Part shown: piece after piece, positions 2,599 to 53,524 of the stretch
Position numbering within the stretch: position 1 is the stretch's first letter
Layout: each line of letters begins with the position of its first letter
Sequence record: PQ511146.1
Reading direction: 5' to 3' (one strand)
Length of the DNA stretch: 64,000 nt
DNA from: Escherichia phage NHEP1
Program-made: the position numbers and the translations under genes
The notes under the pieces: generated by a model
What the model was told of the DNA's origin: nothing
The model's database searches: none
The model's input: only the letters and a program-made list of their open reading frames with translations

Positions 2599-2877
2599 AT
2601 GAGCTGTGAAAAATCTTTTTTCATTATCATCTACGGTAAGGATAACTGCCCACATTGTGTAAGAGCAAAAGAATTTGCAGCAAGCAAAGGTATACCTTTC
2701 GTATACAAGACGCTTGGTGAAGGATACACAAAAGAAGAGCTTATTGAGAAGTGTAGTCCATTTGTTCCCAGAACGTTGCCTCAGATCTTCTTGGAAAGCA
2801 ACCTTGATAGTGTCCACATCGGTGGTGCTGACGATTTCATCTCTTTTGTTAAGAATGGTTTTGGAGAGAAAAAGTGA
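2599..2877 (+). CDS. Glutaredoxin/NrdH-like thiol-disulfide oxidoreductase
   Basis: 92 aa with CPHC redox motif near N-terminus; sits between nrdB and nrdD. Confidence 0.7.
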   Translation: MSCEKSFFIIIYGKDNCPHCVRAKEFAASKGIPFVYKTLGEGYTKEELIEKCSPFVPRTLPQIFLESNLDSVHIGGADDFISFVKNGFGEKK

Positions 2878-4997
2878 AAATTGTAAAACGGGACGGTAGA
2901 GAAGAGGTCTATAACGGAGTTAAGGTAATCAAGGCGGCAGAGTCCGCCTTACTTGAGTCTGGGCATACTGAAGAAGAAGCTTACCGGATCGCTTGTACGG
3001 TTAATGAAGTTGTTGCCAACAATCTACCAACCGACCAGTGCACGATCTCTGTAAAAAATATCCATATCCTTGTTGAAGATGCTCTTATGGATATGGGTTT
3101 AAAATGTGCAGCCAGAGAATATATCCAGTATAGACAGACAAGAGATAATAACAGAGAGGCAGGTGGAAAACTGCTTGCAGATATTAGTGGCTTCTTGGAT
3201 CGAACTTGTGATGAATTTACAAAAGAAAACGCAAATAAGCCCACTAATCATGTACATACTCATCGTGACCTGCTTGCAGGTATCCTTAGCAAACACCTTG
3301 CATCAACACAGATACTGCCAGATCGTGTCTCCGAAGAGCACAACAAGGGATTCATCCATGTGCATGATCTTGACTATCTGATCAGTCCGTTAACAAACTG
3401 CTGTTTGGTGAATTATCCGGATATGCTGGAAAACGGATTCAACATTGGCAACGCCCATGTCAGTAAGCCGAAGTCAATAGGGGTTGCAACAACAATCCTC
3501 AGCCAAATCTCTAGTGCAGTAGCTAGTGCTCAATATGGTGGTCAGACCATGAGCCATATTGATCATTACCTGGCGCAGTATGCTGAAGCAACCTATGAGA
3601 AGAATCTTAAATTTTGTCAGGAACATTGGTTGCCGGATGCTGAGACTGTTGCAATGCAAATGACGGATAAAGACGTGTTTGATAGTATGCAAACTTTGCT
3701 ATACCAAATCAATACGTTAACTTCTGTCAACGGGCAAACCCCATTCATCACATTAAGTTTAGGACTGGATACCTCAATCTTTGGTAGAATGATTACCAAA
3801 AACTACCTGAAAGTCCACAAAATGGGTCTTGGTGAAGAACGTATCACACCTGTGTTCCCTAAGGTGCTGTTCTTCCTGGAGGAGGGTATCAACATGAACC
3901 CTGGGGATCCTAACTATGATTTGAAACGATTAGCTCTGGAATGCTCTGCAGAGCGGATTTATCCTGACTTCGTATCTGTACCACTAAATAGAAAAGTGAC
4001 AGGTTCAACAGAAGGTAATGTCACAAGCATGGGTTGCCGGAGTTTTCTTAGCAAATACAATGACTTGGAAACAGGAGAGGAGAAATACCTTGGCAGATTT
4101 AACTTAGGTGTTGTTAGCCTTAACCTACCAATGATTGCGGCAAAAGCTAAAACGGAAGGTGTTGATTTCTTTGCAGTTCTTGACGAGTACTTGGATCTGG
4201 CATACGAGGCTCACCTTGTAAGGGTTAACCGTCTAAAAGGAACAAAGGCAGGGCAGAACCCCATCATGTGGTGTGAAGGAGCCCTTGCTCGCCTGGATCC
4301 TGAAGAGAGCATTGATAAACTCTTCTATGACGGGTATGCTTCCATAAGTATTGGGTATATTGGTGTGTATGAAACCTGCCAGATTTTAGGCAGAGAGGGA
4401 GACAAGTCCTTAGCTCTTGGGATCCTTCAACACATGAAAGACGCTTGTGATCGGTACAAAAAAGAAAGTGGTCTGGCATTCAGCTTGTACGGCACTCCTT
4501 CAGAGAGCTTGTGCTATAAGGCTGCAACATGTCTAGATCGTGAATACCCTGAAGTGTTGAAGCACGAGCACGAATACCTTACCAACAGTTTCCACCAACC
4601 CGTGTGGATCAATAGCTCACCTTTTGACAAGTGGAAGTATGAGGAAGGTTTTGCTATGATCTCTTCTGGCGGCAACATTGGATACATAGAAACACCTAAC
4701 CTGAAAAACAACCTGGATGCTTTGGAATCCCTTGTCGATTTCGGGTATAAACACATTATGTATTTTGGTATTAACCAACCTGTGGATAAATGTCTTAAGT
4801 GCGGATTCTCTGGTGAGTTCAGTGCAACAGCTAAAGGCTTTGTATGCCCAGAGTGCGGAAACCATGAAGAGGGAACGATCAGTGTGATTAGACGTGTATC
4901 TGGGTATCTGTCCAGTCCAAACTCCCGCCCTTACAATAAGGGTAAGCAGGCTGAGGTTATAGAACGGGTTAAGCACTACGGAAGTTGTGGTTGCTGA
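2874..4997 (+). CDS. nrdD: Anaerobic ribonucleoside-triphosphate reductase (class III)
   Basis: 707 aa; C-terminal zinc ribbon CLKCGF...CPECG and glycyl-radical motif RVSGY. Confidence 0.9.
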   Translation: MKIVKRDGREEVYNGVKVIKAAESALLESGHTEEEAYRIACTVNEVVANNLPTDQCTISVKNIHILVEDALMDMGLKCAAREYIQYRQTRDNNREAGGKLLADISGFLDRTCDEFTKENANKPTNHVHTHRDLLAGILSKHLASTQILPDRVSEEHNKGFIHVHDLDYLISPLTNCCLVNYPDMLENGFNIGNAHVSKPKSIGVATTILSQISSAVASAQYGGQTMSHIDHYLAQYAEATYEKNLKFCQEHWLPDAETVAMQMTDKDVFDSMQTLLYQINTLTSVNGQTPFITLSLGLDTSIFGRMITKNYLKVHKMGLGEERITPVFPKVLFFLEEGINMNPGDPNYDLKRLALECSAERIYPDFVSVPLNRKVTGSTEGNVTSMGCRSFLSKYNDLETGEEKYLGRFNLGVVSLNLPMIAAKAKTEGVDFFAVLDEYLDLAYEAHLVRVNRLKGTKAGQNPIMWCEGALARLDPEESIDKLFYDGYASISIGYIGVYETCQILGREGDKSLALGILQHMKDACDRYKKESGLAFSLYGTPSESLCYKAATCLDREYPEVLKHEHEYLTNSFHQPVWINSSPFDKWKYEEGFAMISSGGNIGYIETPNLKNNLDALESLVDFGYKHIMYFGINQPVDKCLKCGFSGEFSATAKGFVCPECGNHEEGTISVIRRVSGYLSSPNSRPYNKGKQAEVIERVKHYGSCGC

Positions 4998-5177: not shown

Positions 5178-5647
5178 ATATTGTCGGGTATACAGAGATA
5201 TCTTACACCGAGGGGCCAGGCATTAGGACAGCTTTGTGGGTATCTGGGTGCCCACACGCTTGTCCTGGTTGCTTTAATCAAGCATTTTGGTCAAAAGATA
5301 AAGGAAGAGAGTTCACCGAAGAAGATTTGCAGAAAATTTTGTCGGATTTAGACAATGAATCTGTATGCGGTATTTCTTTGCTTGGTGGAGAGCCTTTGGC
5401 TACGTATAATGAGCCCGGTATTATTAAACTTATGAGGAGAATTAAGGAAAAGTTTGGTGACAAGAAAACTATTCTTGTGTATACTGGGTTCACATTTGAG
5501 CATATCTCTAGTGATGTTCTTGAGCTGGCTGATATCATCATTGATGGCAAGTATGTAAAAGATTTACCAACAAAGAAACCATTCCGAGGCAGCGATAACC
5601 AAAGAATGTTTAAAAAGGTAGCAGGCGGTTGGGTTCAGGTTGACTAA
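5174..5647 (+). CDS. nrdG: Anaerobic RNR activating enzyme (radical SAM)
   Basis: CPHACPGC (CxxxCxxC) cluster motif; start moved to ATG 5174 (MNIVGY). Confidence 0.85.
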   Translation: MNIVGYTEISYTEGPGIRTALWVSGCPHACPGCFNQAFWSKDKGREFTEEDLQKILSDLDNESVCGISLLGGEPLATYNEPGIIKLMRRIKEKFGDKKTILVYTGFTFEHISSDVLELADIIIDGKYVKDLPTKKPFRGSDNQRMFKKVAGGWVQVD

Positions 5648-5650
5648 TCG

Positions 5651-5680
5651 TTGACAAAGCTTTGGTAAGTTGGTTATAAT
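5651..5680 (+). promoter_or_regulatory. Sigma70-like promoter TTGACA-N18-TATAAT
   Basis: Consensus hexamers seen at 5651-5656 and 5675-5680. Confidence 0.5.
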
Positions 5681-5709
5681 TATCGTAATGAAAGCAGAGG
5701 AGGTGCCAA

Positions 5710-5823
5710 ATGGCTAAAAAAGCCTTGAAGAAGGCGTACAAGAAAGAGATTGCGCTTGAGCTTAAGAAAAAACACAAGCGTGAAAAGAAATATCATGAAG
5801 ATGAAGAGGGGGTGCAACAGTGA
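5710..5823 (+). CDS. Small lysine-rich protein (37 aa)
   Basis: GAGGAGG 6 nt upstream of ATG; MAKKALKKAYKKEIALELKKKHKREKKYHEDEEGVQQ; stop overlaps GTG start of next ORF. Confidence 0.4.
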   Translation: MAKKALKKAYKKEIALELKKKHKREKKYHEDEEGVQQ

Positions 5824-6170
5824 CACAAGAGCGTATTGATTTAGCCAGTAAGTTTGTAGATCTCATTTTGCCACGGTTGGTTACTCAACATGCAGACGCT
5901 ATTTCTACTAATCTTGATGGCTTACGCCTAATGCTGAACCGAACAGATGACCCACGTATTCGGGCCGATTTAGAGGCCTCTGCCAACAAACTGGAAAAGT
6001 TCTTGCAAGTAGACACGCAAGAAGCCTTGCACAAGATTATGGTGGAAGGTTTCTCTAAAGAATTCACCGTTAAAGAGCTTAAGGAGCTGATCCGCCAAGA
6101 AGAGATGAATATCCGAGTTCAGGCTGTTGCAAGCAGCATGGAAGCGGCTATTGAAAAACTGTTGCAGTAA
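5820..6170 (+). CDS. Hypothetical protein (GTG start)
   Basis: Track ORF, 116 aa, coupled to upstream small ORF. Confidence 0.5.
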   Translation: MTQERIDLASKFVDLILPRLVTQHADAISTNLDGLRLMLNRTDDPRIRADLEASANKLEKFLQVDTQEALHKIMVEGFSKEFTVKELKELIRQEEMNIRVQAVASSMEAAIEKLLQ

Positions 6171-6208
6171 AAGTCCTTGACACATCTCAATCTGAAAGGA
6201 GTCCCAAC

Positions 6209-6997
6209 ATGGGTCGAGCTAAAGAAACAAAACGCATGCGTGATGAAGCCAGAGAGGCTCGCAAATCTGATCGCCTGCGTAAGGCTGCTGAGAAATTTGC
6301 TGACGAACGAGAGCACACAGCTCCAGCTCTCCGACCAATGAACAAAAAGCAGCAAAAGTATCTTGATTATCTAGGATCGCGTAAGATTATTATTGTAAAC
6401 GGTGTGTTTGGATCCGGTAAGACATTCATGGCATCCGCATATGCAGGTGATCTTTTGCGTAAGAACGAGATTGATAAGATCATTGTTGCACGCCCTTACG
6501 TTCAGACAGGAAAGACTTCAGGGTTTAAACCTGGAAACGCAATGCAGAAACTGTGGCCCTATCTCCGAAGCATGATGGACACGATTTGTCGTCGTGTTGG
6601 CAAAGGTGCTTTTGCCGCAATGCTGGGAGATGGTCAGAACAGTCGTATCGAGATCTGTGAAGTTGAAAGCATTCGTGGTCGTAGTTTCGATGAGCGGTGC
6701 TTTGTCCTAATTGACGAGGCACAGCAAACTAACCCTGAAGAAATGTTGTCAATTATCACAAGGATCTCTGATCAGGCCACACTTGTAATCATGGGTGATA
6801 ATAGCCAACGTGACATCCCTGGTAAGTCTGGACTTGCATGGGTAACGGATTTCTTTACTCGTCATCCAGATCCTGAGGTTGGGATGATTAGCTTTGATAG
6901 CCCAGATGATGTCGTTCGTTCCGGGTTGGGTCGTCAGATTGCACTCAATCTTATCGAGGATCGTGCAAATCATATTTGGACCCCTGTTTCCGAGTAA
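6209..6997 (+). CDS. phoH: PhoH-like ATPase
   Basis: Walker A GVFGSGKT and PhoH-like downstream motifs; RBS AAAGGAG upstream. Confidence 0.9.
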   Translation: MGRAKETKRMRDEAREARKSDRLRKAAEKFADEREHTAPALRPMNKKQQKYLDYLGSRKIIIVNGVFGSGKTFMASAYAGDLLRKNEIDKIIVARPYVQTGKTSGFKPGNAMQKLWPYLRSMMDTICRRVGKGAFAAMLGDGQNSRIEICEVESIRGRSFDERCFVLIDEAQQTNPEEMLSIITRISDQATLVIMGDNSQRDIPGKSGLAWVTDFFTRHPDPEVGMISFDSPDDVVRSGLGRQIALNLIEDRANHIWTPVSE

Positions 6998-7042
6998 TAC
7001 AGAAGGGTGGTTATTCCACCCTTAAATATCTAAAACGATTAT

Positions 7043-7070
7043 TGACAAACAGATAAGTTTTAGGTATTAT
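7043..7070 (+). promoter_or_regulatory. Sigma70-like promoter TTGACA-N16-TATTAT
   Basis: Hexamers seen upstream of 7096 ORF. Confidence 0.4.
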
Positions 7071-7095
7071 CGAACAAAACAAGGAGAATGACAGT

Positions 7096-7407
7096 ATGGC
7101 TACAATACAAGAGAGACTGAATAAGATATACTGCCTATTTGTCTATAACGGTGAGACAATTTTGGCAAACAAAGGATACAAGAATGTGTGGATTAAGGAC
7201 AGCGGTGGTAACATAATCAACTTGGCGCTACTACGTGAGCGAAGACACCGATTCTTCACTGAGTCCCGTGTTATTGAAAGCAACACATTTTACAGAACAG
7301 GGGATAAAGTAATTGTTGACAATGACACGTGGTATGTGGTAGACTGGCAATCGTTGACCTGTGATGCTTCTGACAATTGTAAGTATTCCATGGTAATTGC
7401 TAAATAA
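7096..7407 (+). CDS. Hypothetical protein
   Basis: Track ORF 103 aa with AAGGAG RBS. Confidence 0.5.
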   Translation: MATIQERLNKIYCLFVYNGETILANKGYKNVWIKDSGGNIINLALLRERRHRFFTESRVIESNTFYRTGDKVIVDNDTWYVVDWQSLTCDASDNCKYSMVIAK

Positions 7408-7468
7408 AGGCAAATGAGAATCAGGTTTAAATAGATCGCTTTTAACTTTCCAACATTAAGGACCTCAC

Positions 7469-8518
7469 ATGAATTTAACACCTCGCAGCACCATGGTACA
7501 CGGCATGAAAGAAAAACAGAACGGCTTCGAACCGATGAGTAATAAAATGTTTGGTATGCCTGGTGGTATTATGGAAACATACAGCTACCCAACGCCAGTT
7601 GTTGACCACGTGCTTTATATTGACGATCTTGAGGATTTGCAGGATCATATGTCCCGTTTGCAAACAATTCGTATGGCACAGCCGGAAGAAAGTATCCGTG
7701 TAATTGTTAACAGCCCTGGTGGTTGCGTCCACATTGCCATGGCGTATTTGCAGGCATTCCGCGAGTCTCAGGCAAGCGTTGTTGTACACGCTGAAGGGAT
7801 GTGCTGCTCAGCAGGAACAATCTTATGGCTGGGTTGCAAAGAACGAACTGTGGCTCCGGACACAGAGTTTATGTTCCACTACTATCAAGGTGGCACCTAT
7901 GGCAACGGTGTGAACATGAATACTCAGGTCAACTACTGGAAGAAACGTTTTGAACGCCTGATCGAAAAATACTACGGTGGGGTTCTGACAGAAGATGAGA
8001 TCGCATCCATCACGGCTGGTGGAGAAGTGTGGTTGGATGGAGAAGAGCTGGCAGCTCGAACTGGTGCTATCATTCTGGACGATGAAAACATTCAGCGCAT
8101 TCAGAATGGGCAGAAACCGAAAAAGCTTTTGGCAAAAAGTGATGAAGAAGGTGTGCTAGGCGAAGCAGGCCTGCCAGAGATTCACCAATGCACATCTCTG
8201 GACGAGCTGGTTCACGCTGTTGAGTCTGCAAAAGCAAATGGTATGAAAGGTGATGTTCACACTGTGTTCCTGAATCTGCAGATGGAGAGTGGTGAGACCG
8301 TTAAGATTGCACTGGGTGAGATTACCTCGGAAGATCTGCAGCGATTCTCTGTGGTAGAGCTTCAGGACATTTTGTCCCAATTGAAAACCACCCTGAACGG
8401 AGGTGAAGAAGTTCAGGTTAAAGATAAGACCCGCAAGCGTCTGGTGGACAATATTATTAAAACAGCAAAAGAGCTCAATGAAAAAATCCTGGGCGCAGGA
8501 ATTATCGAAGAAGCTTAA
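7469..8518 (+). CDS. ClpP-family serine peptidase-like protein with C-terminal extension
   Basis: VNSPGG motif, candidate Ser in MCCSAG and His in MFHYYQGG spaced as in ClpP. Confidence 0.65.
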   Translation: MNLTPRSTMVHGMKEKQNGFEPMSNKMFGMPGGIMETYSYPTPVVDHVLYIDDLEDLQDHMSRLQTIRMAQPEESIRVIVNSPGGCVHIAMAYLQAFRESQASVVVHAEGMCCSAGTILWLGCKERTVAPDTEFMFHYYQGGTYGNGVNMNTQVNYWKKRFERLIEKYYGGVLTEDEIASITAGGEVWLDGEELAARTGAIILDDENIQRIQNGQKPKKLLAKSDEEGVLGEAGLPEIHQCTSLDELVHAVESAKANGMKGDVHTVFLNLQMESGETVKIALGEITSEDLQRFSVVELQDILSQLKTTLNGGEEVQVKDKTRKRLVDNIIKTAKELNEKILGAGIIEEA

Positions 8519-8530
8519 ACATTAATCTTA

Positions 8531-8556
8531 AAGCCCTCTTCGGAGGGCTTTTATGA
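8531..8556 (+). terminator. Rho-independent terminator
   Basis: AAGCCCTC-TTCG-GAGGGCTT followed by TTTAT. Confidence 0.6.
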
Positions 8557-8569
8557 TCTGGAGATTTGC

Positions 8570-9103
8570 ATGACTTGTGCTAGAAAACCTGACGAACAAC
8601 GTAACGCCTATGATGAATATGTGACACCAGAGTGGTGTGCAGAAGGGTTGTATGACCTCATTCCGTTCCCAGAAGATTGGACCTATTTGGAGCCTTGCAG
8701 GAATAGCGCCTCAGGTGTGTTCTACTCCCGTATGCCGTTAGGATCTGCATGGGGAGAAATCCAAGAAGGTGTTGACTATCTGAATACAGAATACAACCAT
8801 GTTGACTGTATTATCACCAACCCGCCGTACAGCCTGGCTCGTGAGTTTGTGGACAAGGCGTTGAAAGATGCCGACGTAGTTATTATGCTTTTGCGTCTTA
8901 ATTTTCTGGAAAGCAAGGCCAGATTTGAATGGTGGCTTGATAATGCCCCTACCACTGTGATCACAATATCTAAGCGTCCATCATTCCAATCGAATGGCAG
9001 AACTGACGGGCAAGCATATGCATATTTTGTGTGGGACAAGAAGAACCGTTTAGACCTACCACCATTTATGTGGTTGGCACCTCCGGAGGCAGATTTGAAA
9101 TGA
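8570..9103 (+). CDS. Small phage Dam-like DNA N6-adenine methyltransferase
   Basis: NPPY catalytic motif (ITNPPYS) and N-terminal W..TPEW-type motif typical of small phage Dam proteins. Confidence 0.65.
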   Translation: MTCARKPDEQRNAYDEYVTPEWCAEGLYDLIPFPEDWTYLEPCRNSASGVFYSRMPLGSAWGEIQEGVDYLNTEYNHVDCIITNPPYSLAREFVDKALKDADVVIMLLRLNFLESKARFEWWLDNAPTTVITISKRPSFQSNGRTDGQAYAYFVWDKKNRLDLPPFMWLAPPEADLK

Positions 9104-9384
9104 AAATGAGTGCTAAGGACAAGTTGCACCAGTTAGCGCTAAAACGTCCTGTAACTCTCCCTGACGAGCTTAACTCCATTTATGATGCGATTGTAGGGGA
9201 GATACAAAATAAGGCGTTAGCAGGCTTTCTGGGATGCGGATTTTCGATAAATCTTCCATCACACCTCTCAGACTACTTCCCACACATCGTTGGGGATTTG
9301 AGGGCAGGAGGTCTGCAGGTGGATGTTGTTGGCATCTCCCCGGAGAAAAATAACACAGTTGCCTACTTGACAGTGACCTGGTAG
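9100..9384 (+). CDS. Hypothetical protein
   Basis: ATGA start/stop overlap with preceding gene; start moved to ATG 9100. Confidence 0.5.
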   Translation: MKMSAKDKLHQLALKRPVTLPDELNSIYDAIVGEIQNKALAGFLGCGFSINLPSHLSDYFPHIVGDLRAGGLQVDVVGISPEKNNTVAYLTVTW

Positions 9385-9419
9385 TAGTGTATTTTGTTTT
9401 CAACAAGAGGGGGTCATCT

Positions 9420-9659
9420 ATGTATAAGTCATTTTCAATTTACTCAAGACAGGCAAAACACTACACAGAGATTCTGATCACTCAGAAAAAATCTGTGGAA
9501 GGTGAGTGGGAATATCATCATAAAATGTTGCGTCCAGACTGGGTTTTTGATAGGCTTATTGCTATGATCCCTCTTGGAGAAGTATACCCTCTGACAGGTC
9601 ATAGGGATGCTTGGGATTTAATTGACTATATAGATTCATTTAAGGAGCCTAGATTATGA
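9420..9659 (+). CDS. Hypothetical protein
   Basis: In-frame ATG at 9420 preceded by GAGGGGG. Confidence 0.5.
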   Translation: MYKSFSIYSRQAKHYTEILITQKKSVEGEWEYHHKMLRPDWVFDRLIAMIPLGEVYPLTGHRDAWDLIDYIDSFKEPRL

Positions 9660-10054
9660 AGATTGAGATTACTGAAGAAGGTAAGAAAGTCTCTGGTAAC
9701 TATGCAACAGTTATCCGTGATGTAATGTTCGAAGTCACTAAGATTGGCACATCCAAGGTTGGTCAAACGGTGAGTGTGCAAGGTAATATCACCTCAGGAG
9801 AGAAGATATTCATCGTGATAAAAGGCCAGGATCCTGTAGAAGGGACAGTTGGACGTGGTGGATACTTGTGTATCTCTGAAGAGCCTCGCATGCTAGTTGC
9901 TGATAACTCCACAGGTAAAAAGCGAGTATGTAACACGGACGAGGTGATGATTATCTATCCAGTCAACCCGGATGATCCGGCAACATGGATTGTGGGAAAT
10001 GAAATCTTCTCTTTAGAAGAGTTATCCTTCCCAGCTCCGCGATCTGTTCAGTAA
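9656..10054 (+). CDS. Hypothetical protein
   Basis: Track ORF 132 aa, ATGA overlap with upstream gene. Confidence 0.55.
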   Translation: MKIEITEEGKKVSGNYATVIRDVMFEVTKIGTSKVGQTVSVQGNITSGEKIFIVIKGQDPVEGTVGRGGYLCISEEPRMLVADNSTGKKRVCNTDEVMIIYPVNPDDPATWIVGNEIFSLEELSFPAPRSVQ

Positions 10055-10093: not shown

Positions 10094-10327
10094 ATGAAAG
10101 TTAAATTTCTTACAGATTTAGGGTACCCTTCCTTGGTTGACTGCGTTGGTAAAATTGTGGAAGCAAAACGGCTATCTGCAAACGATAATGTTGTCATGGT
10201 TAAGGGAAAAGATTTACTAGCTGCAGGTGCAGAGTCTGGCAGGATCTCTCCTGACTATACGTATTACCTGTCTTTAAGTAATCTACCAGAACGAGGCGGC
10301 AAAGGCCTTGAAGTTGTGGAGGAGTGA
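10094..10327 (+). CDS. Small acidic protein, paralog family A (MKVK...KG.DL.AAGA...VVEE)
   Basis: Shares N-terminal MKVK, KGxDLxAAGA core and acidic C-terminus with 13749, 13966, 15838, 16106 ORFs. Confidence 0.55.
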   Translation: MKVKFLTDLGYPSLVDCVGKIVEAKRLSANDNVVMVKGKDLLAAGAESGRISPDYTYYLSLSNLPERGGKGLEVVEE

Positions 10328-11358: not shown

Positions 11359-11530
11359 ATCCTTAGAACAGGCTGAAAACCTTCTCCACGAGCTGGTAAA
11401 GGAGTGGAAAGTTGAATACTCAGATTTTAATGCAAGAGAGGGGGAAGATTATTGGCCTACGGAGCGCTCAGAGGGAGAGTGGTATCAAGATTTCATAGAA
11501 TGGCTATATCAGACGTGCGATGAGGGGTGA
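11345..11530 (+). CDS. Hypothetical protein
   Basis: ATG 11345 with AAAGGAG RBS; track start 11327 is TTG. Confidence 0.45.
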   Translation: MTKNKSLEQAENLLHELVKEWKVEYSDFNAREGEDYWPTERSEGEWYQDFIEWLYQTCDEG

Positions 11531-11988
11531 CGATGTTTGTTAAATATGTAAAAACGTGCCTCAACAACCTTGGTAGAGAGCATTGGTACACACTGCTTGA
11601 AAAAGGAGAAATTTTAACAAAATCTGGAAAGATAACTTTGATACCTTTGGACGATAAAGACCCGTCACTACTTGTCATAGATGATTACGTTACAGGTGTG
11701 TCGTACGAGGTATCTGTGGAGAGGTTAATACGCAGATCTGGAGGTCCTTATGACCGAAGAGAGTATGTTTTCGATTCCGTTACAGAGAAGGAAGATCCGT
11801 CCCTGATGTTTAGGATGGTAATCAGGGATATGAAATCATCTATAAATAGGATCGTAAAGGACATTAAGGAGCCTTTTAGGGTAAAAGTTAAGAAGTTTTT
11901 TGATTCTAAGATCAACATACTCGCCGTTGTGCTGGGCGTAATTCAACTTCTGTTAATTTTGCACTATTTTGAACTGTTGTTTAAGTAA
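11527..11988 (+). CDS. Hypothetical protein with C-terminal hydrophobic segment
   Basis: Track ORF 153 aa. Confidence 0.5.
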   Translation: MTMFVKYVKTCLNNLGREHWYTLLEKGEILTKSGKITLIPLDDKDPSLLVIDDYVTGVSYEVSVERLIRRSGGPYDRREYVFDSVTEKEDPSLMFRMVIRDMKSSINRIVKDIKEPFRVKVKKFFDSKINILAVVLGVIQLLLILHYFELLFK

Positions 11989-35627: not shown

Positions 35628-35637
35628 GGTACGATAC

Positions 35638-35829
35638 TCACTTGTTGTTAAGAAGTTCTAAAACTTTCTGTTTTACTTTATCAAGATCTGTTGATTCAAA
35701 AACTGTGCGATATCCCCAACTTTGCCCATAGGAATGACTGCAATCACCGTAACACCATTGCTCAACCTGATAGTATTCAAGGAATGGGTGCTGTCTAACT
35801 ATGATACCGTCTCGATTAAAAATTACCAT
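35638..35829 (-). CDS. Hypothetical protein
   Basis: Track ORF 63 aa. Confidence 0.45.
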   Translation of the reverse strand: MVIFNRDGIIVRQHPFLEYYQVEQWCYGDCSHSYGQSWGYRTVFESTDLDKVKQKVLELLNNK

Positions 35830-35892
35830 AATTTATCCCTCTCTGCTAGTTTATGTTTATATTATATACCGCAGTTTTCAGATGTCAACCTT

Positions 35893-36144
35893 TTACAGGT
35901 TACTCCAGTATACTCGGCATTTACACTTCGGGCAATGAGGTTCTTTTATGTAATAACCGTCAGTCTTTGGAACACTTTTTGGTGCAGTTTTAAGATTGTA
36001 CCGAGTAAAGCAACGGAAGCAGGTTACCTCTCCTACCTGTTGATCGTTTATCCACTCGCCAGAGTAAAGCTCTTTCTTGTTTCTCATAATTATCTCCCCA
36101 AGCCTCTGCAATCTTCTACCAGAATCTCCAGCCAGAAAGCACAC
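35893..36144 (-). CDS. Small Cys-rich zinc-ribbon-like protein
   Basis: CFRCF...CPKCKC motif pairs. Confidence 0.5.
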   Translation of the reverse strand: MCFLAGDSGRRLQRLGEIIMRNKKELYSGEWINDQQVGEVTCFRCFTRYNLKTAPKSVPKTDGYYIKEPHCPKCKCRVYWSNL

Positions 36145-36338
36145 GGGAACACTTTGATGATTGAATCTTCACTCGGCTCGGAAGTTCTTTTTCCGTAGGG
36201 CAGGTAGAAATACCCTCCTGCAGATTCAAACATGGCTCCTTCTGTTGTATCTATCACAGCTAGAATTAAGATTTTAGTCTCCATAGTGCTCCCCTGTCTT
36301 AATCGTTGTGGTGACTATACCACCTTAAAATATAGCTG

Positions 36339-36878
36339 TCAACACTCTTTGTACTCCACCACGATAATATCTATATCAAAAGTGGCAAGGTTAATAATGT
36401 CCTCTACATGTTCCCACTTCAAACCGCCTATGCCGCACCCGATCTTAGGGATGTAGAATGGTAAAATCGACCCCTCAAATACTTCATTGACTCGCTCAAA
36501 TCCTTTCAGTATTGAGAAATATTCAGCATTAGGCCCTGGGTAGAACTGAGTATACAGATTTATTCCGTAGACAATACCTCTCGGAGATAAGTGCTCCCAG
36601 CGGGAGAACGCGCCCAGTTTACTTAGGCAACCGTGCATAGTCATTTTATCAGCTTCCAATGCTTGAGGGAACTCACGGGCAATCTGTTTTGCTACACCCT
36701 TACCCATTGTGTGGAAGCAGTTACAACCGTGGATCAGGTGACCATCACCGCTCTTAAAAAGGGAGATTAAATCTCCCTCTACAGTATCAATAATCACGAT
36801 ATTCCAGCTCCTCTTCCACAATTTCAAAAAACTCAGTCCAGCACTGTGGCATATTGGAGTTACCGAAGTGGCTTTCAT
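36339..36878 (-). CDS. Macro-domain-like protein (putative ADP-ribose binding/processing)
   Basis: GDLI...HGCNC...MGKGVAKQI and later GCGIGG glycine-rich motif, in the order expected for macro domains. Confidence 0.5.
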   Translation of the reverse strand: MKATSVTPICHSAGLSFLKLWKRSWNIVIIDTVEGDLISLFKSGDGHLIHGCNCFHTMGKGVAKQIAREFPQALEADKMTMHGCLSKLGAFSRWEHLSPRGIVYGINLYTQFYPGPNAEYFSILKGFERVNEVFEGSILPFYIPKIGCGIGGLKWEHVEDIINLATFDIDIIVVEYKEC

Positions 36879-37212
36879 AGTAAAGGTTTTTACCGCTCGG
36901 AAGATAAAAATCTGTTACCTCATAAAATCCACAATCGTCGCACTCTCCCTCTTCAAACTTGGCCTTAACCTTAATGCCGAGGAAGGTGAAAAGTTTATGG
37001 ATATCTTCGGTCTCGAACTCCCAATTAATGTTGTTTTCCGCATCGGTGTAAAACTGGATCAGTAGGCCATCATCCATTTTTCCAAAATATTCTGTGAAGT
37101 AGCTTCCTTCCCAGAAGTCTTTGTGACAAATAATATCCATGCGCTTGCCCATAATAAAGGTGTGGGCGTTTCGTGCATCGTCACGAATCAGTTTTGGCAT
37201 TTCATAAATCAT
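36787..37212 (-). CDS. Hypothetical protein
   Basis: Track ORF 141 aa. Confidence 0.5.
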   Translation of the reverse strand: MIYEMPKLIRDDARNAHTFIMGKRMDIICHKDFWEGSYFTEYFGKMDDGLLIQFYTDAENNINWEFETEDIHKLFTFLGIKVKAKFEEGECDDCGFYEVTDFYLPSGKNLYYESHFGNSNMPQCWTEFFEIVEEELEYRDY

Positions 37213-37277
37213 CGTAGTTCTCCAGGATCAATAGGTGGTGCTACAGGAAGATCATAAAACATGGCGATCACATTCTC

Positions 37278-37475
37278 TTACGCAGGGATTGCTTCAAACA
37301 GGCCGTTATCGATACCATCCTTCAAGTAAAGATTATACTCTATGTCAGTATCTGTGTAAAGGGCAGCATCTAGCATTCTATCTGTTAGTCCATCCATTGG
37401 GTGGAGAAACCACCACCCACGCCAGTCAAAGTAACAACCTGGTGCATCTTCTCTCACACGGATTCGATAAATCAT
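37278..37475 (-). CDS. Hypothetical protein
   Basis: Track ORF 65 aa; AGGAGG RBS. Confidence 0.4.
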   Translation of the reverse strand: MIYRIRVREDAPGCYFDWRGWWFLHPMDGLTDRMLDAALYTDTDIEYNLYLKDGIDNGLFEAIPA

Positions 37476-37571
37476 GGGCAGTGGCCTCCTGTTAGTTACA
37501 CATCCCAGTTTTCTTCGTTCATTACATCCTCCAGCTCAACAAGGTTATAATTGCACACCTTACAACCCGTG

Positions 37572-37988
37572 TCAACAGAAAACTTCAACAAATTCTTCCA
37601 CAGTTTTAATGTCGTGGGAAAAAGGTTTGCGGCTATAACGGGCAATAGCACTGTCAACCACCGCCCGGTACTCCAAATCTTCAGAATATTTCATGAAGCA
37701 TTGCAACGTCTCTGGACAGATAGCCAGATAGCTCCACCACCCCTCTTCAGATTGGTAGTCAAATCCCATACTCTCTAGCCACGAAGCGTATACACCTGCA
37801 CCTTCCAGCCAGTGAGTATTTTCATCAAGGAACTTGTTCACAGTCATGTGAGCTTCTAAGCATTTATCCAACTCTTTTCCGTTAACCAGCCACGCACTGA
37901 CAGTGGCGCATCCAAGGTCCACAGATTGGGTTGATAGATTGTATTGGTCATAGTTCTCAGGTTTAACAATGATATCTTCTAATGTCAT
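37572..37988 (-). CDS. Hypothetical protein
   Basis: Track ORF 138 aa. Confidence 0.5.
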   Translation of the reverse strand: MTLEDIIVKPENYDQYNLSTQSVDLGCATVSAWLVNGKELDKCLEAHMTVNKFLDENTHWLEGAGVYASWLESMGFDYQSEEGWWSYLAICPETLQCFMKYSEDLEYRAVVDSAIARYSRKPFSHDIKTVEEFVEVFC

Positions 37989-38007
37989 TTTTCAGTCCTC
38001 TCTATAC

Positions 38008-38035
38008 AAAAATGCCCCACCCTTTCGGGCAGGGC
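38008..38035 (-). terminator. Rho-independent terminator (minus strand)
   Basis: Minus strand GCCCTGCCC-GAAA-GGGTGGGGC followed by ATTTTTGT; identical hairpin recurs at 49129-49150. Confidence 0.6.
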
Positions 38036-38050
38036 TATGTTGACTAGATG

Positions 38051-39277
38051 TTAAAAAGGTATGTCATCATCAAAGGCGTACTGTGCCGGATTCTGATCCA
38101 TCGGGTCGTCTTCCGCATCATCTACAGGAGGAGCGTCTACAGTGTTTTGCTGTGGGGCGGCTTCCTGTTTGGCAGCTTGAGGCTCTTGATGGTCAGTGAC
38201 TCCAGCACCGTTCTTGATCCAATCATACAACGGTTCAGCAAGATTAGTCAAGACATCTTTTGCCTCTGCAGTAATTGCTACTGCAAAATCATCAACTTTC
38301 GTTTTCTTGTCAATACGGCGACAAGCGTTCAATACCGCATTACCAACACTGGCACCTACTTCATCTTCAGTTCGGTTAGTGGCTTGAGCGTACTCTTTCT
38401 TAAGCTCGATGGTGACCACGTGCAGTGTTTTAGCCACATCTAAAGGACTGTCAATCTTAAACCCGCGATCCAGGATGATCTGCAATGCATTGATACTGTG
38501 CCCTGTCTCTACACCGATGGGGTCGTAAGAGGATTTACGCTTACCACCAGAACCTTGTGTACCGTTCTCTGCTTTAGGCGGGTAGGCCTTGAAGCCGCTG
38601 ATAATATTCCCGGTGTCTTTGTCAACAATAGCTGCAACACGACCACCTACCACCAGGTCTTTAAGCTGCTCATCAGAGACAACCATAGCACCTTCACCAA
38701 TCTTGTGATCATTGACAGTAACCACGTTGCCAACAATCTGAGTCACATCGCCATAGATGCGTAAAACGTCCTGATTGGCATTCTGCTGAGGTTTCTGCTT
38801 CTGGCCTTGTGATTGTGCACCTTGTTGCTGTTTTTGCTGCTGAGTCGCTGCTGGAGCCTCTCCTGCACCCAGCTTGACCATCTTAGCCAGGGAGCCTTTG
38901 TAATAGATCTTACCGTTATGCTCGTTTGCCTTCAAAGGGATATTTACGATCCATCCTGGCGTTACAGTTTCCCACTTGTCATCAATTTTAACAGAGACAG
39001 AGTCTTGATGACCCGGTTTAAGCAGCTTATCACCCATACTGATCCAAACTTCTTCACCACCTTGAAGCAGGTTATCAGAGGAATCCAGTTCAGAAATCAG
39101 TAAAGAGATGGTGTGGCTGGATTCAATTTTCTTACCTTGCCACACAGTGGTTTTAATACCTGTTGTAGGATCAGCACCTTTGATAGGCTTGATGCTGACA
39201 CGTTTAATCATGCCGTGAGCCAGTAAAACAGTTTCACGCGGATTCATCGGGTTAGCGAATTGTTGAATAACGCTCAT
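38051..39277 (-). CDS. Hypothetical protein with Gln-rich linkers and bacterial SSB-type C-terminal tail (DDDIPF)
   Basis: 408 aa; C-terminus ...AQYAFDDDIPF; N-terminal region unlike a canonical SSB OB fold by eye. Confidence 0.6.
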   Translation of the reverse strand: MSVIQQFANPMNPRETVLLAHGMIKRVSIKPIKGADPTTGIKTTVWQGKKIESSHTISLLISELDSSDNLLQGGEEVWISMGDKLLKPGHQDSVSVKIDDKWETVTPGWIVNIPLKANEHNGKIYYKGSLAKMVKLGAGEAPAATQQQKQQQGAQSQGQKQKPQQNANQDVLRIYGDVTQIVGNVVTVNDHKIGEGAMVVSDEQLKDLVVGGRVAAIVDKDTGNIISGFKAYPPKAENGTQGSGGKRKSSYDPIGVETGHSINALQIILDRGFKIDSPLDVAKTLHVVTIELKKEYAQATNRTEDEVGASVGNAVLNACRRIDKKTKVDDFAVAITAEAKDVLTNLAEPLYDWIKNGAGVTDHQEPQAAKQEAAPQQNTVDAPPVDDAEDDPMDQNPAQYAFDDDIPF

Positions 39278-52157: not shown

Positions 52158-53524
52158 ACGTCCCCCTTTTCTGCTCTAGTTTCAAAATCTTTCCTGACTT
52201 TCTCGTCTAAGCCAGGGAAAGTTGTATTATAAAACTCTACGACTCTCGGGTCAACAATAATATCCACCTCTCTTAATGGACGCAACAAGTTTATTCCTTG
52301 TATCGTCTTAACCCGACTCAAGGCAACATACGTCATTCCGGGAGAGAAAGCTCCGTTCTTTCCGAGGTCTAGGTTGTAACAATCTAACGTAAGTCCTTGA
52401 CTTTTATGCGATGTTACTGCGTACCCAGATTTCAAAGGAAGTTGCTCATAAGACCCGATCACAACCCTCTCTATGAACTTCTCCATCTTCCTTTCGGCAA
52501 TATTGTACCTCTGGGAAGGTTTGTACTCGTTATTCTCCCACAATCTCGGCTCAATTTCAACCTGTGTCCCGTCTTCCAGCTCAACCACCACAGACTTGGT
52601 CTTGAATTTTACCACTGTGGCGCGTGTCCCGTTGACATAGTACGGAACTTTATGTGTCGGGTCAACATCGTTTGAGGTTATCATAACCTTCATCCCTATC
52701 TTCAGCCTCATTTCCTGCTCCACAGGCAGTGTGGAGGGGAACTTACCTTTCATTTTACCAATGTAGGTCTTCTCTGGGGCCTTGATGGCATCATAGAAAC
52801 GTCTGTTCACCTCCTCTGCTTGCTTATTGGTGGCACAGATGGTCAAGGCATCTGTTGGGACACCACCATGATAGCAACGAGTGTTAAGCTCTGCTACAAC
52901 CTCTTTTATGCGACGACCTTCACGAACACAGTTCAACATTGTGGCGAAGCGAACAGATTCCTGACGGAACTGGTCTACTAATGCTATATTGTGAAGATTA
53001 AGATCCTCCCAAGATTTTGTATAGCAACACAGGTCTGTGTGGTAGAAGTTGAAGTAGGCTTCTTTCTCCATAGAAGAGACAACTGGGGGTGCTTGGTAGA
53101 AATCTCCAAACAATAGCACCTGAATGCCTCCGAAAGGTTTGTCATTTTTCCGAAGAAAGCGGAGTTTTCTATCCATCTCTATGAACTTGTCAGCACGGAT
53201 CATAGAGATTTCATCGATAATTAGGATGGTAAATGCCTTGCTTTTCAGAGGCTTTGCTGTTTTTGCCCTTATTGCTGTCCAGTCTGACTCCATGCTCACA
53301 CCTGCGGCAAGATCGAAAGTTCGGTGCGCTGTTGCTCCATTAACGTTTAAAGCGGCTACCCCTGTCGGGGCAACCGTTATGCAAGAGTCTCCATACATGG
53401 ACTGGATCATGTTGATAAGATATGTCTTCCCGGTTCCACCGGGTCCACTTACGAAGACATTCTCACCACTCATGATTGCAACAAGGGCAGCATCTGTGCC
53501 TACATCGTACTGCCCTTTTTCCAT
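52154..53524 (-). CDS. SF1 DNA helicase, Dda/RecD-like
   Basis: Walker A GPGGTGKT; IIDEISM Walker B-like; HKSQGLT motif. Confidence 0.85.
   Translation of the reverse strand: MEKGQYDVGTDAALVAIMSGENVFVSGPGGTGKTYLINMIQSMYGDSCITVAPTGVAALNVNGATAHRTFDLAAGVSMESDWTAIRAKTAKPLKSKAFTILIIDEISMIRADKFIEMDRKLRFLRKNDKPFGGIQVLLFGDFYQAPPVVSSMEKEAYFNFYHTDLCCYTKSWEDLNLHNIALVDQFRQESVRFATMLNCVREGRRIKEVVAELNTRCYHGGVPTDALTICATNKQAEEVNRRFYDAIKAPEKTYIGKMKGKFPSTLPVEQEMRLKIGMKVMITSNDVDPTHKVPYYVNGTRATVVKFKTKSVVVELEDGTQVEIEPRLWENNEYKPSQRYNIAERKMEKFIERVVIGSYEQLPLKSGYAVTSHKSQGLTLDCYNLDLGKNGAFSPGMTYVALSRVKTIQGINLLRPLREVDIIVDPRVVEFYNTTFPGLDEKVRKDFETRAEKGDV

Follow-up and report, generated by a model that had tools for sequence, protein, structure and literature searches.

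A 64,000-nucleotide stretch of Escherichia phage NHEP1 (PQ511146.1; hereafter, the window) contains at positions 7469-8518 of the plus strand a gene encoding a ClpP-like protein, which is the subject of this analysis. The open reading frame (ORF) starts with ATG and is preceded, about 7 nucleotides upstream, by an AAGGA Shine-Dalgarno sequence. The original prediction, made from the letters of the sequence, described a ClpP-like peptidase with an acidic C-terminal extension, encoded in an early-type region and perhaps directed against host proteins rather than acting in the prohead. We assign a probability of about 60% to the reading that the gene product is a second protease of this Vequintavirus, with a non-morphogenetic role. 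According to alignments and a structural model, the protein has a ClpP fold with an intact nucleophile-base pair (Ser114 and His137), the NSPGG motif, and the Gly-rich handle strand. The gene is located in the DNA-metabolism arm of the genome, outside the head module. Since a separate protease gene adjoins the portal and scaffold genes, the product is very unlikely to be the capsid-maturation protease. The gene is divided as follows:

7469-8518, plus strand: ClpP-like protease gene, 349 residues plus stop; orthologue of rV5 gp122, PHROG 5410
7469-7600, plus strand: N-terminal segment, residues 1-44, modelled as disordered; residues 28-44 are conserved in the family (F28, G29, Y40, P41)
7601-8110, plus strand: ClpP-fold core, residues 45-214, with the NSPGG motif, Ser114, His137, Glu186, and the handle strand and helix (residues 138-169)
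7808-7810, plus strand: codon of the putative catalytic Ser114, which aligns with Ser97 of E. coli ClpP
7877-7879, plus strand: codon of His137, which aligns with His122 of E. coli ClpP
8024-8026, plus strand: codon of Glu186, at the position of the triad Asp (Asp171 of E. coli ClpP)
8111-8197, plus strand: charged linker, residues 215-243, variable and disordered
8198-8494, plus strand: clade-specific C-terminal alpha/beta domain, residues 244-342, composed of a helix, a beta-hairpin, and three helices

The sequence surrounding the gene (positions 6000-10000) is most similar to that of Escherichia phage vB_EcoM-ECP26 (ECP26; 99.8% identity; megablast, 122 phage records), and the remaining matches are rV5-like phages of the genus Vequintavirus. 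The ClpP-like gene is 96-100% identical to its counterparts in 118 Vequintavirus records. In rV5, the corresponding gp122, with 349 residues and an isoelectric point (pI) of 5.0, was labelled 'ClpP (ATP-dependent) protease subunit' in 2013 (PMC3606486). The profile of PHROG 5410 ('ATP-dependent protease', Vequintavirinae-type) aligns with residues 24-344 over its positions 4-321 of 323 (E=1.4e-154), with the C-terminal domain included, and PHROG 1827 matches at 6.6e-39. Judged by these profiles, the nearest relatives of the protein are a stand-alone phage group comprising PHROG 1827 and PHROG 5410. Homologues of the core only were identified by tblastn in 947 phage records.

The predicted ClpP-like motifs were recovered by profile, sequence, and structure searches. 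The Pfam S14 model CLP_protease matches residues 59-169 (E=9.6e-13, 48.8 bits against a cutoff of 20.2), covering only profile positions 32-144 of 182, and phmmer matched more than one hundred solved ClpPs. Assignment to family S49 was rejected, since Peptidase_S49 (PF01343) gave no match at E<=0.01. In an AlphaFold2 monomer model computed from 35 sequences of the family, residues 45-215 have a predicted local distance difference test score (pLDDT) of about 90, whereas residues 1-42 score below 50, and residues 37-45 are Pro-rich. The top 50 matches of the model in the PDB, identified using Foldseek, are all ClpPs, with target-normalised template modelling (TM) scores of 0.56-0.72, or 0.63-0.72 if one chloroplast ClpP chain is set aside. 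The fold is shared with bacterial ClpPs (MEROPS S14; PDB 1TYF, 1YG6, and 6WR2) with TM scores of about 0.65-0.70 over approximately 160-174 aligned columns, although the sequence identity is 17-23%. Equivalents of Ser97 and His122, the NSPGG motif, the Gly-rich handle strand following the histidine (YQGGTYGNGVNM, compared with QPLGGYQGQATDI in E. coli), and the handle helix are retained, whereas Asp171 is replaced by Glu.

Residues Ser114, His137, N81, G84, and G85 are invariant in the whole family and in the aligned homologues from ICP1, PaoP5, nt-1, and Sugarlandvirus phages. The third position of the triad is occupied by Glu in NHEP1, by Gln in most relatives from Seunavirus, Certrevirus, and Erwinia phages, and by Asp in ICP1, nt-1, and Sugarlandvirus. 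This variability would fit a catalytically weakened or inactive ClpP fold that works through binding, for example, by decoying or inhibiting Clp components of the host or by forming a chaperone-like cage, and so would the Gly-Gly sequence that substitutes for the oligomerisation-sensor Arg-Asp pair located by the triad Asp in bacterial ClpPs. We consider such a binding function highly improbable. The invariance of Ser114, His137, N81, G84-G85, and the substrate-binding Gly-rich strand across very divergent phages is hard to explain without catalysis, and Ser-His dyads with a non-acidic third residue work in other serine hydrolases.

Because the protein misses every curated NCBIfam cutoff, the family is placed as a distinct branch of the ClpP superfamily, nearer by sequence to the phage head-protease branch than to cellular ClpP. 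The best-scoring model is NF045542, 'head maturation protease, ClpP-related' (Clp_rel_HeadMat; 61.4 bits against a cutoff of 120, 1e-16), and the related head-maturation model NF045540 matches the core at 1.5e-14. The clpP model TIGR00493 reaches 32.4 bits against a cutoff of 308.6, and the genuine ClpP and PRK models score 20-40 bits against cutoffs of 228-361. PHROGs 1684, 94, 2976, and 133, all labelled 'head maturation protease', match the core at 1e-22 to 1e-14. These similarities would suit a morphogenetic role, in which the protein serves as a second head protease or processes virion or internal proteins, for example, the orthologue of rV5 gp133. The tail would then be a capsid-targeting or scaffold-like module, comparable to lambda C/Nu3 or to the C-terminal targeting signal of the HK97 protease. 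The ClpP-related head maturation proteases, whose models NF045542 and NF045540 and PHROGs 1684, 94, and 133 are the nearest curated matches to the core, are phage-borne ClpP folds, often fused at the C-terminus to a scaffold or capsid protein, and a helical C-terminal tail is typical of proteases targeted to capsids. Nevertheless, a morphogenetic role is distinctly improbable. The matches cover only the shared ClpP core, with scores of about half the curated cutoffs or less, and there is no capsid, portal, or scaffold gene near the ClpP-like gene in the window.

The head module is located outside the window and was read from the complete genomes of FV3 and ECP26, the latter being the closest genome to the window. 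The module is about 34 kb away from the ClpP-like gene, and in FV3 it is ordered as large terminase, portal (Pfam Portal_Mu), FV3_00062, FV3_00061, decoration protein, and major capsid protein (Phage_cap_E). FV3_00062 matches Pfam Peptidase_S78_2, the XkdF/HK97-type prohead protease (1.1e-17, 64.6 bits against a cutoff of 24), and is 41% identical (1e-19) to ICP1 GP125, which is also an S78_2 protein and is annotated as 'capsid protease'; a search by sequence found no homologue of the head-module protease with a solved structure. FV3_00061 is homologous to ICP1 GP124 (5e-12), for which scaffold activity was demonstrated experimentally (PMC10945586). ECP26 has the same head module, with an S78_2 match of 8.7e-18 for ECP26_00084. 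The S78_2 gene is present at an identity of at least 95% in 117 phage records, compared with 118 for the ClpP-like gene. Because it has an S78_2 protease and a scaffold homologue of its own, the head module is, as judged from these homologies, complete without the ClpP-like protein. In neither genome is the ClpP-like gene a recognisable prohead protease gene with a scaffold or capsid gene beside it, and the doubt expressed in the original prediction about a role in the prohead is well supported, if indirectly.

The C-terminal tail of the ClpP-like protein is unrelated to the scaffold of the phage (hhalign probability 0.2%). In lambda, the scaffold Nu3 is nested in the C-terminal third of gene C, an arrangement that superficially resembles a protease plus a tail. 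The lambda gpC and SppA proteins (MEROPS S49) share the ClpP-superfamily fold; in contrast to lambda gpC, the ClpP-like protein is encoded outside the head module and gave no Peptidase_S49 match at E<=0.01. A nested gene in the manner of lambda was rejected, because there is no in-frame start with a Shine-Dalgarno sequence near the domain boundary. Homologues of the ClpP-like protein are also found in T4-like and T5-like phages, which have well-known prohead proteases of their own (gp21 and pb11, respectively).

The gene for the head protease is poorly served by the existing annotation. FV3_00062 (positions 6404-6976 of the extracted FV3 stretch, minus strand) is labelled 'DNA methyltransferase' in the RefSeq record of FV3 and in JES2013, CR3, and other records, and the label of PHROG 1530 seems to propagate this error. 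Its gene model in FV3 begins about 50 codons too early, so that it overlaps the portal gene. The same protease in ECP26 (ECP26DNA_00084; positions 4505-4924 of the extracted ECP26 stretch, minus strand) is labelled 'hypothetical'. FV3_00061 (positions 5427-6404, minus strand), which has 325 residues, is annotated as 'hypothetical', and its counterpart ECP26DNA_00083 (positions 3525-4505, minus strand) as 'head stabilization/decoration protein'; by homology, these proteins are probably the Vequintavirus scaffold.

The ClpP-like protein continues for 145 residues (approximately 205-349) past the end of the ClpP fold, in agreement with the predicted length of about 150. The extension is a conserved feature, since all of approximately 40 family clusters have lengths of 300-375 residues. 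It was also predicted to be acidic, which is correct (pI 4.95, net charge -8, 17.9% Asp plus Glu) but not distinctive, and acidity was rejected as a hallmark of the tail, since the core matches it in this respect (pI 4.78, net charge -11). The linker differs in length and sequence across the family, and the pLDDT of residues 222-240 is below 50. The C-terminal domain was modelled with a pLDDT of 70-90, and residues F293, E297, and R322 are invariant. The tail has no detectable similarity to that of ICP1 gp211 (hhalign probability 0.3%), and comparisons of sequence identify it as an orphan, clade-specific domain.

The C-terminus of ClpP exits on the apical face of the barrel, which is the docking site of ClpX and ClpA. 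Tyr60 and Tyr62 of the hydrophobic pocket that receives the IGF/IGL loops of these unfoldases correspond in the sequence alignment to the family-invariant Arg77 and to Ile79 (IYLYINSPGG in E. coli, IRVIVNSPGG in the ClpP-like protein), and neither the alignment nor the model contains a counterpart of the pore-gating ClpP axial loop or helix A in the N-terminus. These differences bear on the alternative that the protein is a genuine ClpP subunit, whose tetradecamers would dock to the ClpX or ClpA of the host, or whose chains would mix with its ClpP, and thereby redirect its ATP-dependent proteolysis during infection. The retained handle helix and Gly-rich strand and the above-threshold CLP_protease match speak for a genuine subunit. 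No AAA+ unfoldase gene adjoins the ClpP-like gene, so a partner from the host would be needed, and host clpS and clpA are modestly upregulated in ICP1-infected V. cholerae, with log2 fold changes of about 1.0 and 0.7, respectively (supplement of PMC7567579). However, we find a genuine subunit rather improbable, given the replaced docking tyrosines, the N-terminal region that is modelled as disordered where the axial loop and helix A would be, and the TIGR00493 score far below its cutoff. Moreover, to judge from known structures, a 145-residue extension of every C-terminus would be expected to crowd the apical docking face.

The genes and signals that flank the ClpP-like gene are as follows:

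6209-6997, plus strand: gene for a PhoH-like P-loop ATPase (Pfam PhoH, 3.6e-47)
7042-7070, plus strand: predicted sigma-70-type promoter, TTGACA and TATTAT separated by a 17-nucleotide spacer, 11 of 12 consensus matches
7096-7407, plus strand: ORF of 103 residues, orthologue of rV5 gp121, PHROG 5456, with no Pfam match
8533-8554, plus strand: predicted strong intrinsic terminator, GCCCTC-TTCG-GAGGGC-TTTTAT, directly after the ClpP-like gene
8570-9103, plus strand: gene for a small DNA methyltransferase of 177 residues (PHROG 799, 5e-67)

The placement of the gene between phoH and a Dam-like gene, as originally described, is correct in outline, but the 103-residue ORF, which had been overlooked, intervenes on the phoH side. 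The downstream gene is identified as a methyltransferase by PHROG 799, whereas its matches to both Pfam Dam and EcoRI_methylase are under threshold. The promoter is the counterpart of the predicted P121 of rV5 and the terminator that of the predicted t122, with a free energy change (dG) of -14.9 kcal/mol (Table S4, PMC3606486). Together, the predicted signals flank a two-gene unit of the 103-residue ORF and the ClpP-like gene. The predicted late promoters of rV5 are all within the structural region (PMC3606486). A late promoter of this type for the ClpP-like gene was rejected, because the rV5 motif TGGTAAAATA has no match in the 61-nucleotide spacer upstream of the gene; a single match with one mismatch, located inside the upstream ORF (7206-7215), was judged unconvincing. 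A sigma-70-type promoter and a spacer devoid of the late motif argue against a morphogenetic role.

In the whole window, TGGTAAAATA occurs 17 times when one mismatch is allowed, compared with 7.05 +/- 2.5 expected, and no shuffle reached 17. The excess arises although the window lacks most structural genes; examples are located at 7206-7215, 10147-10156, and 52605-52614.

In Seunavirus and Certrevirus, the ORF that directly precedes the ClpP-like gene encodes a weak homologue of the 103-residue protein (pairwise E=2e-5 for Seunavirus), and the copies from these two genera match each other at E=9e-15. The small ORF and the ClpP-like gene are 1 nucleotide apart in Seunavirus and overlap by 1 nucleotide in Certrevirus. 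Because the homologous small ORFs abut the ClpP-like gene in both genera, the comparison points to a conserved two-gene module, and the 103-residue protein may be a candidate partner, adaptor, or regulator of the protease.

Among the closest known parallels is gp211 of ICP1. It has 326 residues, and its core is 35% identical to that of the NHEP1 protein (E=7e-28). The ICP1 gene order nrdA-nrdB-...-PhoH(gp208)-gp209-gp210-gp211 is syntenic with the window. Both proteins contain the NSPGG and Ser/His motifs and end in a long tail, and both genes are part of an nrd-phoH-clpP neighbourhood, but gp211 has Asp at the third triad position, whereas NHEP1 has Glu, and the tails are dissimilar. RNA sequencing of ICP1 infection assigned gp203-gp211 to the 'Middle-late' class together with genes of nucleic-acid metabolism, whereas the capsid cluster gp122-126, including the protease gp125, is late (PMC7567579). 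The homologue in ICP1 is thus outside the late capsid class, which is a further point against a morphogenetic role. The region of the NHEP1 gene had been described as early-type; a middle, DNA-metabolism class fits better.

The linkage of phoH to the ClpP-like gene appears to be kept in three genera of Vequintavirinae and is kept in ICP1 (seen in FV3, PBES02, and ICP1). In Seunavirus and Certrevirus, the ClpP-like gene follows PhoH and small ORFs, and in Certrevirus (PBES02) a methyltransferase gene comes after it. EspYZU15 contains an unannotated ORF of 262 residues at the position equivalent to that of phoH. In more distant phages, the homologue is located between frd and uvsX (nt-1, a KVP40-like phage of T4 type), next to a deoxynucleoside monophosphate kinase gene (T5-like Sugarlandvirus), or within the non-structural arm (PaoP5, Pakpunavirus). 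Like these homologues, and unlike bacterial ClpP, the NHEP1 gene is phage-encoded and grouped with DNA-metabolism genes, which suggests corresponding expression.

Based on these comparisons, the function of a second, non-morphogenetic protease can be outlined. Host RNA polymerase would transcribe the bicistron of the gp121 orthologue and the ClpP-like gene from the sigma-70 promoter, presumably in the middle phase of infection, together with the genes for nucleotide metabolism and replication. The protein would assemble into ClpP-like rings and degrade proteins in the cytoplasm of the infected cell, not the scaffold within proheads. The substrates could be host proteins, as proposed originally, and early proteins of the phage are equally possible; a minor part in the processing of virion proteins is conceivable as well. 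Given the apical exit of the ClpP C-terminus, that face of the ring would be covered by seven copies of the 145-residue tail. With the tail in this position, and with the docking residues Tyr60 and Tyr62 and the N-terminal axial loops lost, it is plausible from the model and alignments that the tail, possibly together with the gp121-like protein as an adaptor, takes over the gating or substrate-recognition role of an AAA+ partner. We speculate further about a self-contained, AAA+-independent ClpP-like machine, in which seven C-terminal domains form a built-in cap replacing ClpX/ClpA. Assisted by the small protein of the bicistron and perhaps by the syntenic PhoH ATPase, this machine would in mid-infection select and destroy particular proteins of the host, for example, those involved in defence or replication, as a takeover strategy common in its core form to ICP1-, T4-, T5-, and PAK_P1-like phages. 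This extended scenario is unlikely.

Several points weigh against a second, non-morphogenetic protease. The affinity of the core to the head-maturation models of NCBIfam and PHROGs makes descent from a capsid protease plausible, and in most relatives the triad Asp is replaced by Gln. Mass spectrometry of rV5 virions detected 19 proteins (gp1, 27, 30, 32, 33, 36, 37, 41, 42, 43, 45, 49, 52, 53, 60, 61, 64, 133, and 228), gp122 not being among them. The absence of gp122 from the virion speaks for a non-morphogenetic protease, but it is weak evidence, because prohead proteases usually leave the capsid. The gene of gp133, an abundant virion protein of rV5, follows the ClpP-like gene at a distance of only about 3 kb, so that location alone does not exclude a role in the virion. 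We found no transcriptome of a Vequintavirus in the literature, and the timing relies on predicted signals and the analogy to ICP1. The literature search, which extended to transcriptomes of PAK_P3, likewise retrieved no experiment or functional study on the ClpP-like protein, rV5 gp122, ICP1 gp211, or any other homologue, only annotations and the temporal class of the ICP1 gene. The oligomeric state, the tail position, and the substrates are what we infer.

The gp133 protein itself is among the predominant proteins of the rV5 virion, yet it is encoded in the non-structural arm. Its presumed orthologue in the window, identified by coordinates and the annotation of FV3, is an ORF of 153 residues with a hydrophobic C-terminus (11527-11988, plus strand).

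Annotations of the ClpP-like gene already exist for more than 100 genomes, and PHROGs includes its family. As far as we found, the literature does not contain the explicit separation of this protein from the true head protease, which is itself mis-annotated in RefSeq, nor the conserved nrd-phoH-clpP synteny with ICP1, nor the combination of an orphan tail with the loss of AAA+-docking features. The gene is probably misrepresented both by the database label 'ATP-dependent Clp protease subunit' and by 'head maturation protease', which it receives by way of neighbouring PHROGs. Many large virulent phages have a ClpP-like gene in replication or nucleotide modules besides a dedicated capsid protease. 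The carriers, several of them candidates for therapy, include rV5-like, ICP1, KVP40-like, T5-like Sugarlandvirus, and PAK_P1-like phages. Should the protein act as a protease on host or phage proteins in mid-infection, it would add a widespread but unstudied level to the control that phages exert over the proteome of the infected cell, and the rV5-type tail would exemplify the regulation of a ClpP barrel without an AAA+ partner.

A search with PADLOC gave nothing meaningful with respect to defence or anti-defence homology. Further upstream in the window, nrdD, encoding the anaerobic ribonucleotide reductase, is a single intact ORF of 707 residues (2874-4997, plus strand), whereas in FV3 (positions 35636-38554 of the extracted stretch) it is in two pieces, split by a gene for an HNH homing endonuclease. 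Approximately 20 GenBank records named 'Campylobacter phage' (for example, MG065653, MG065676, MG065677, and MG065690) encode proteins with 96-100% identity to those of E. coli Vequintavirus genes, and these records probably reflect coliphage contamination or mislabelling.

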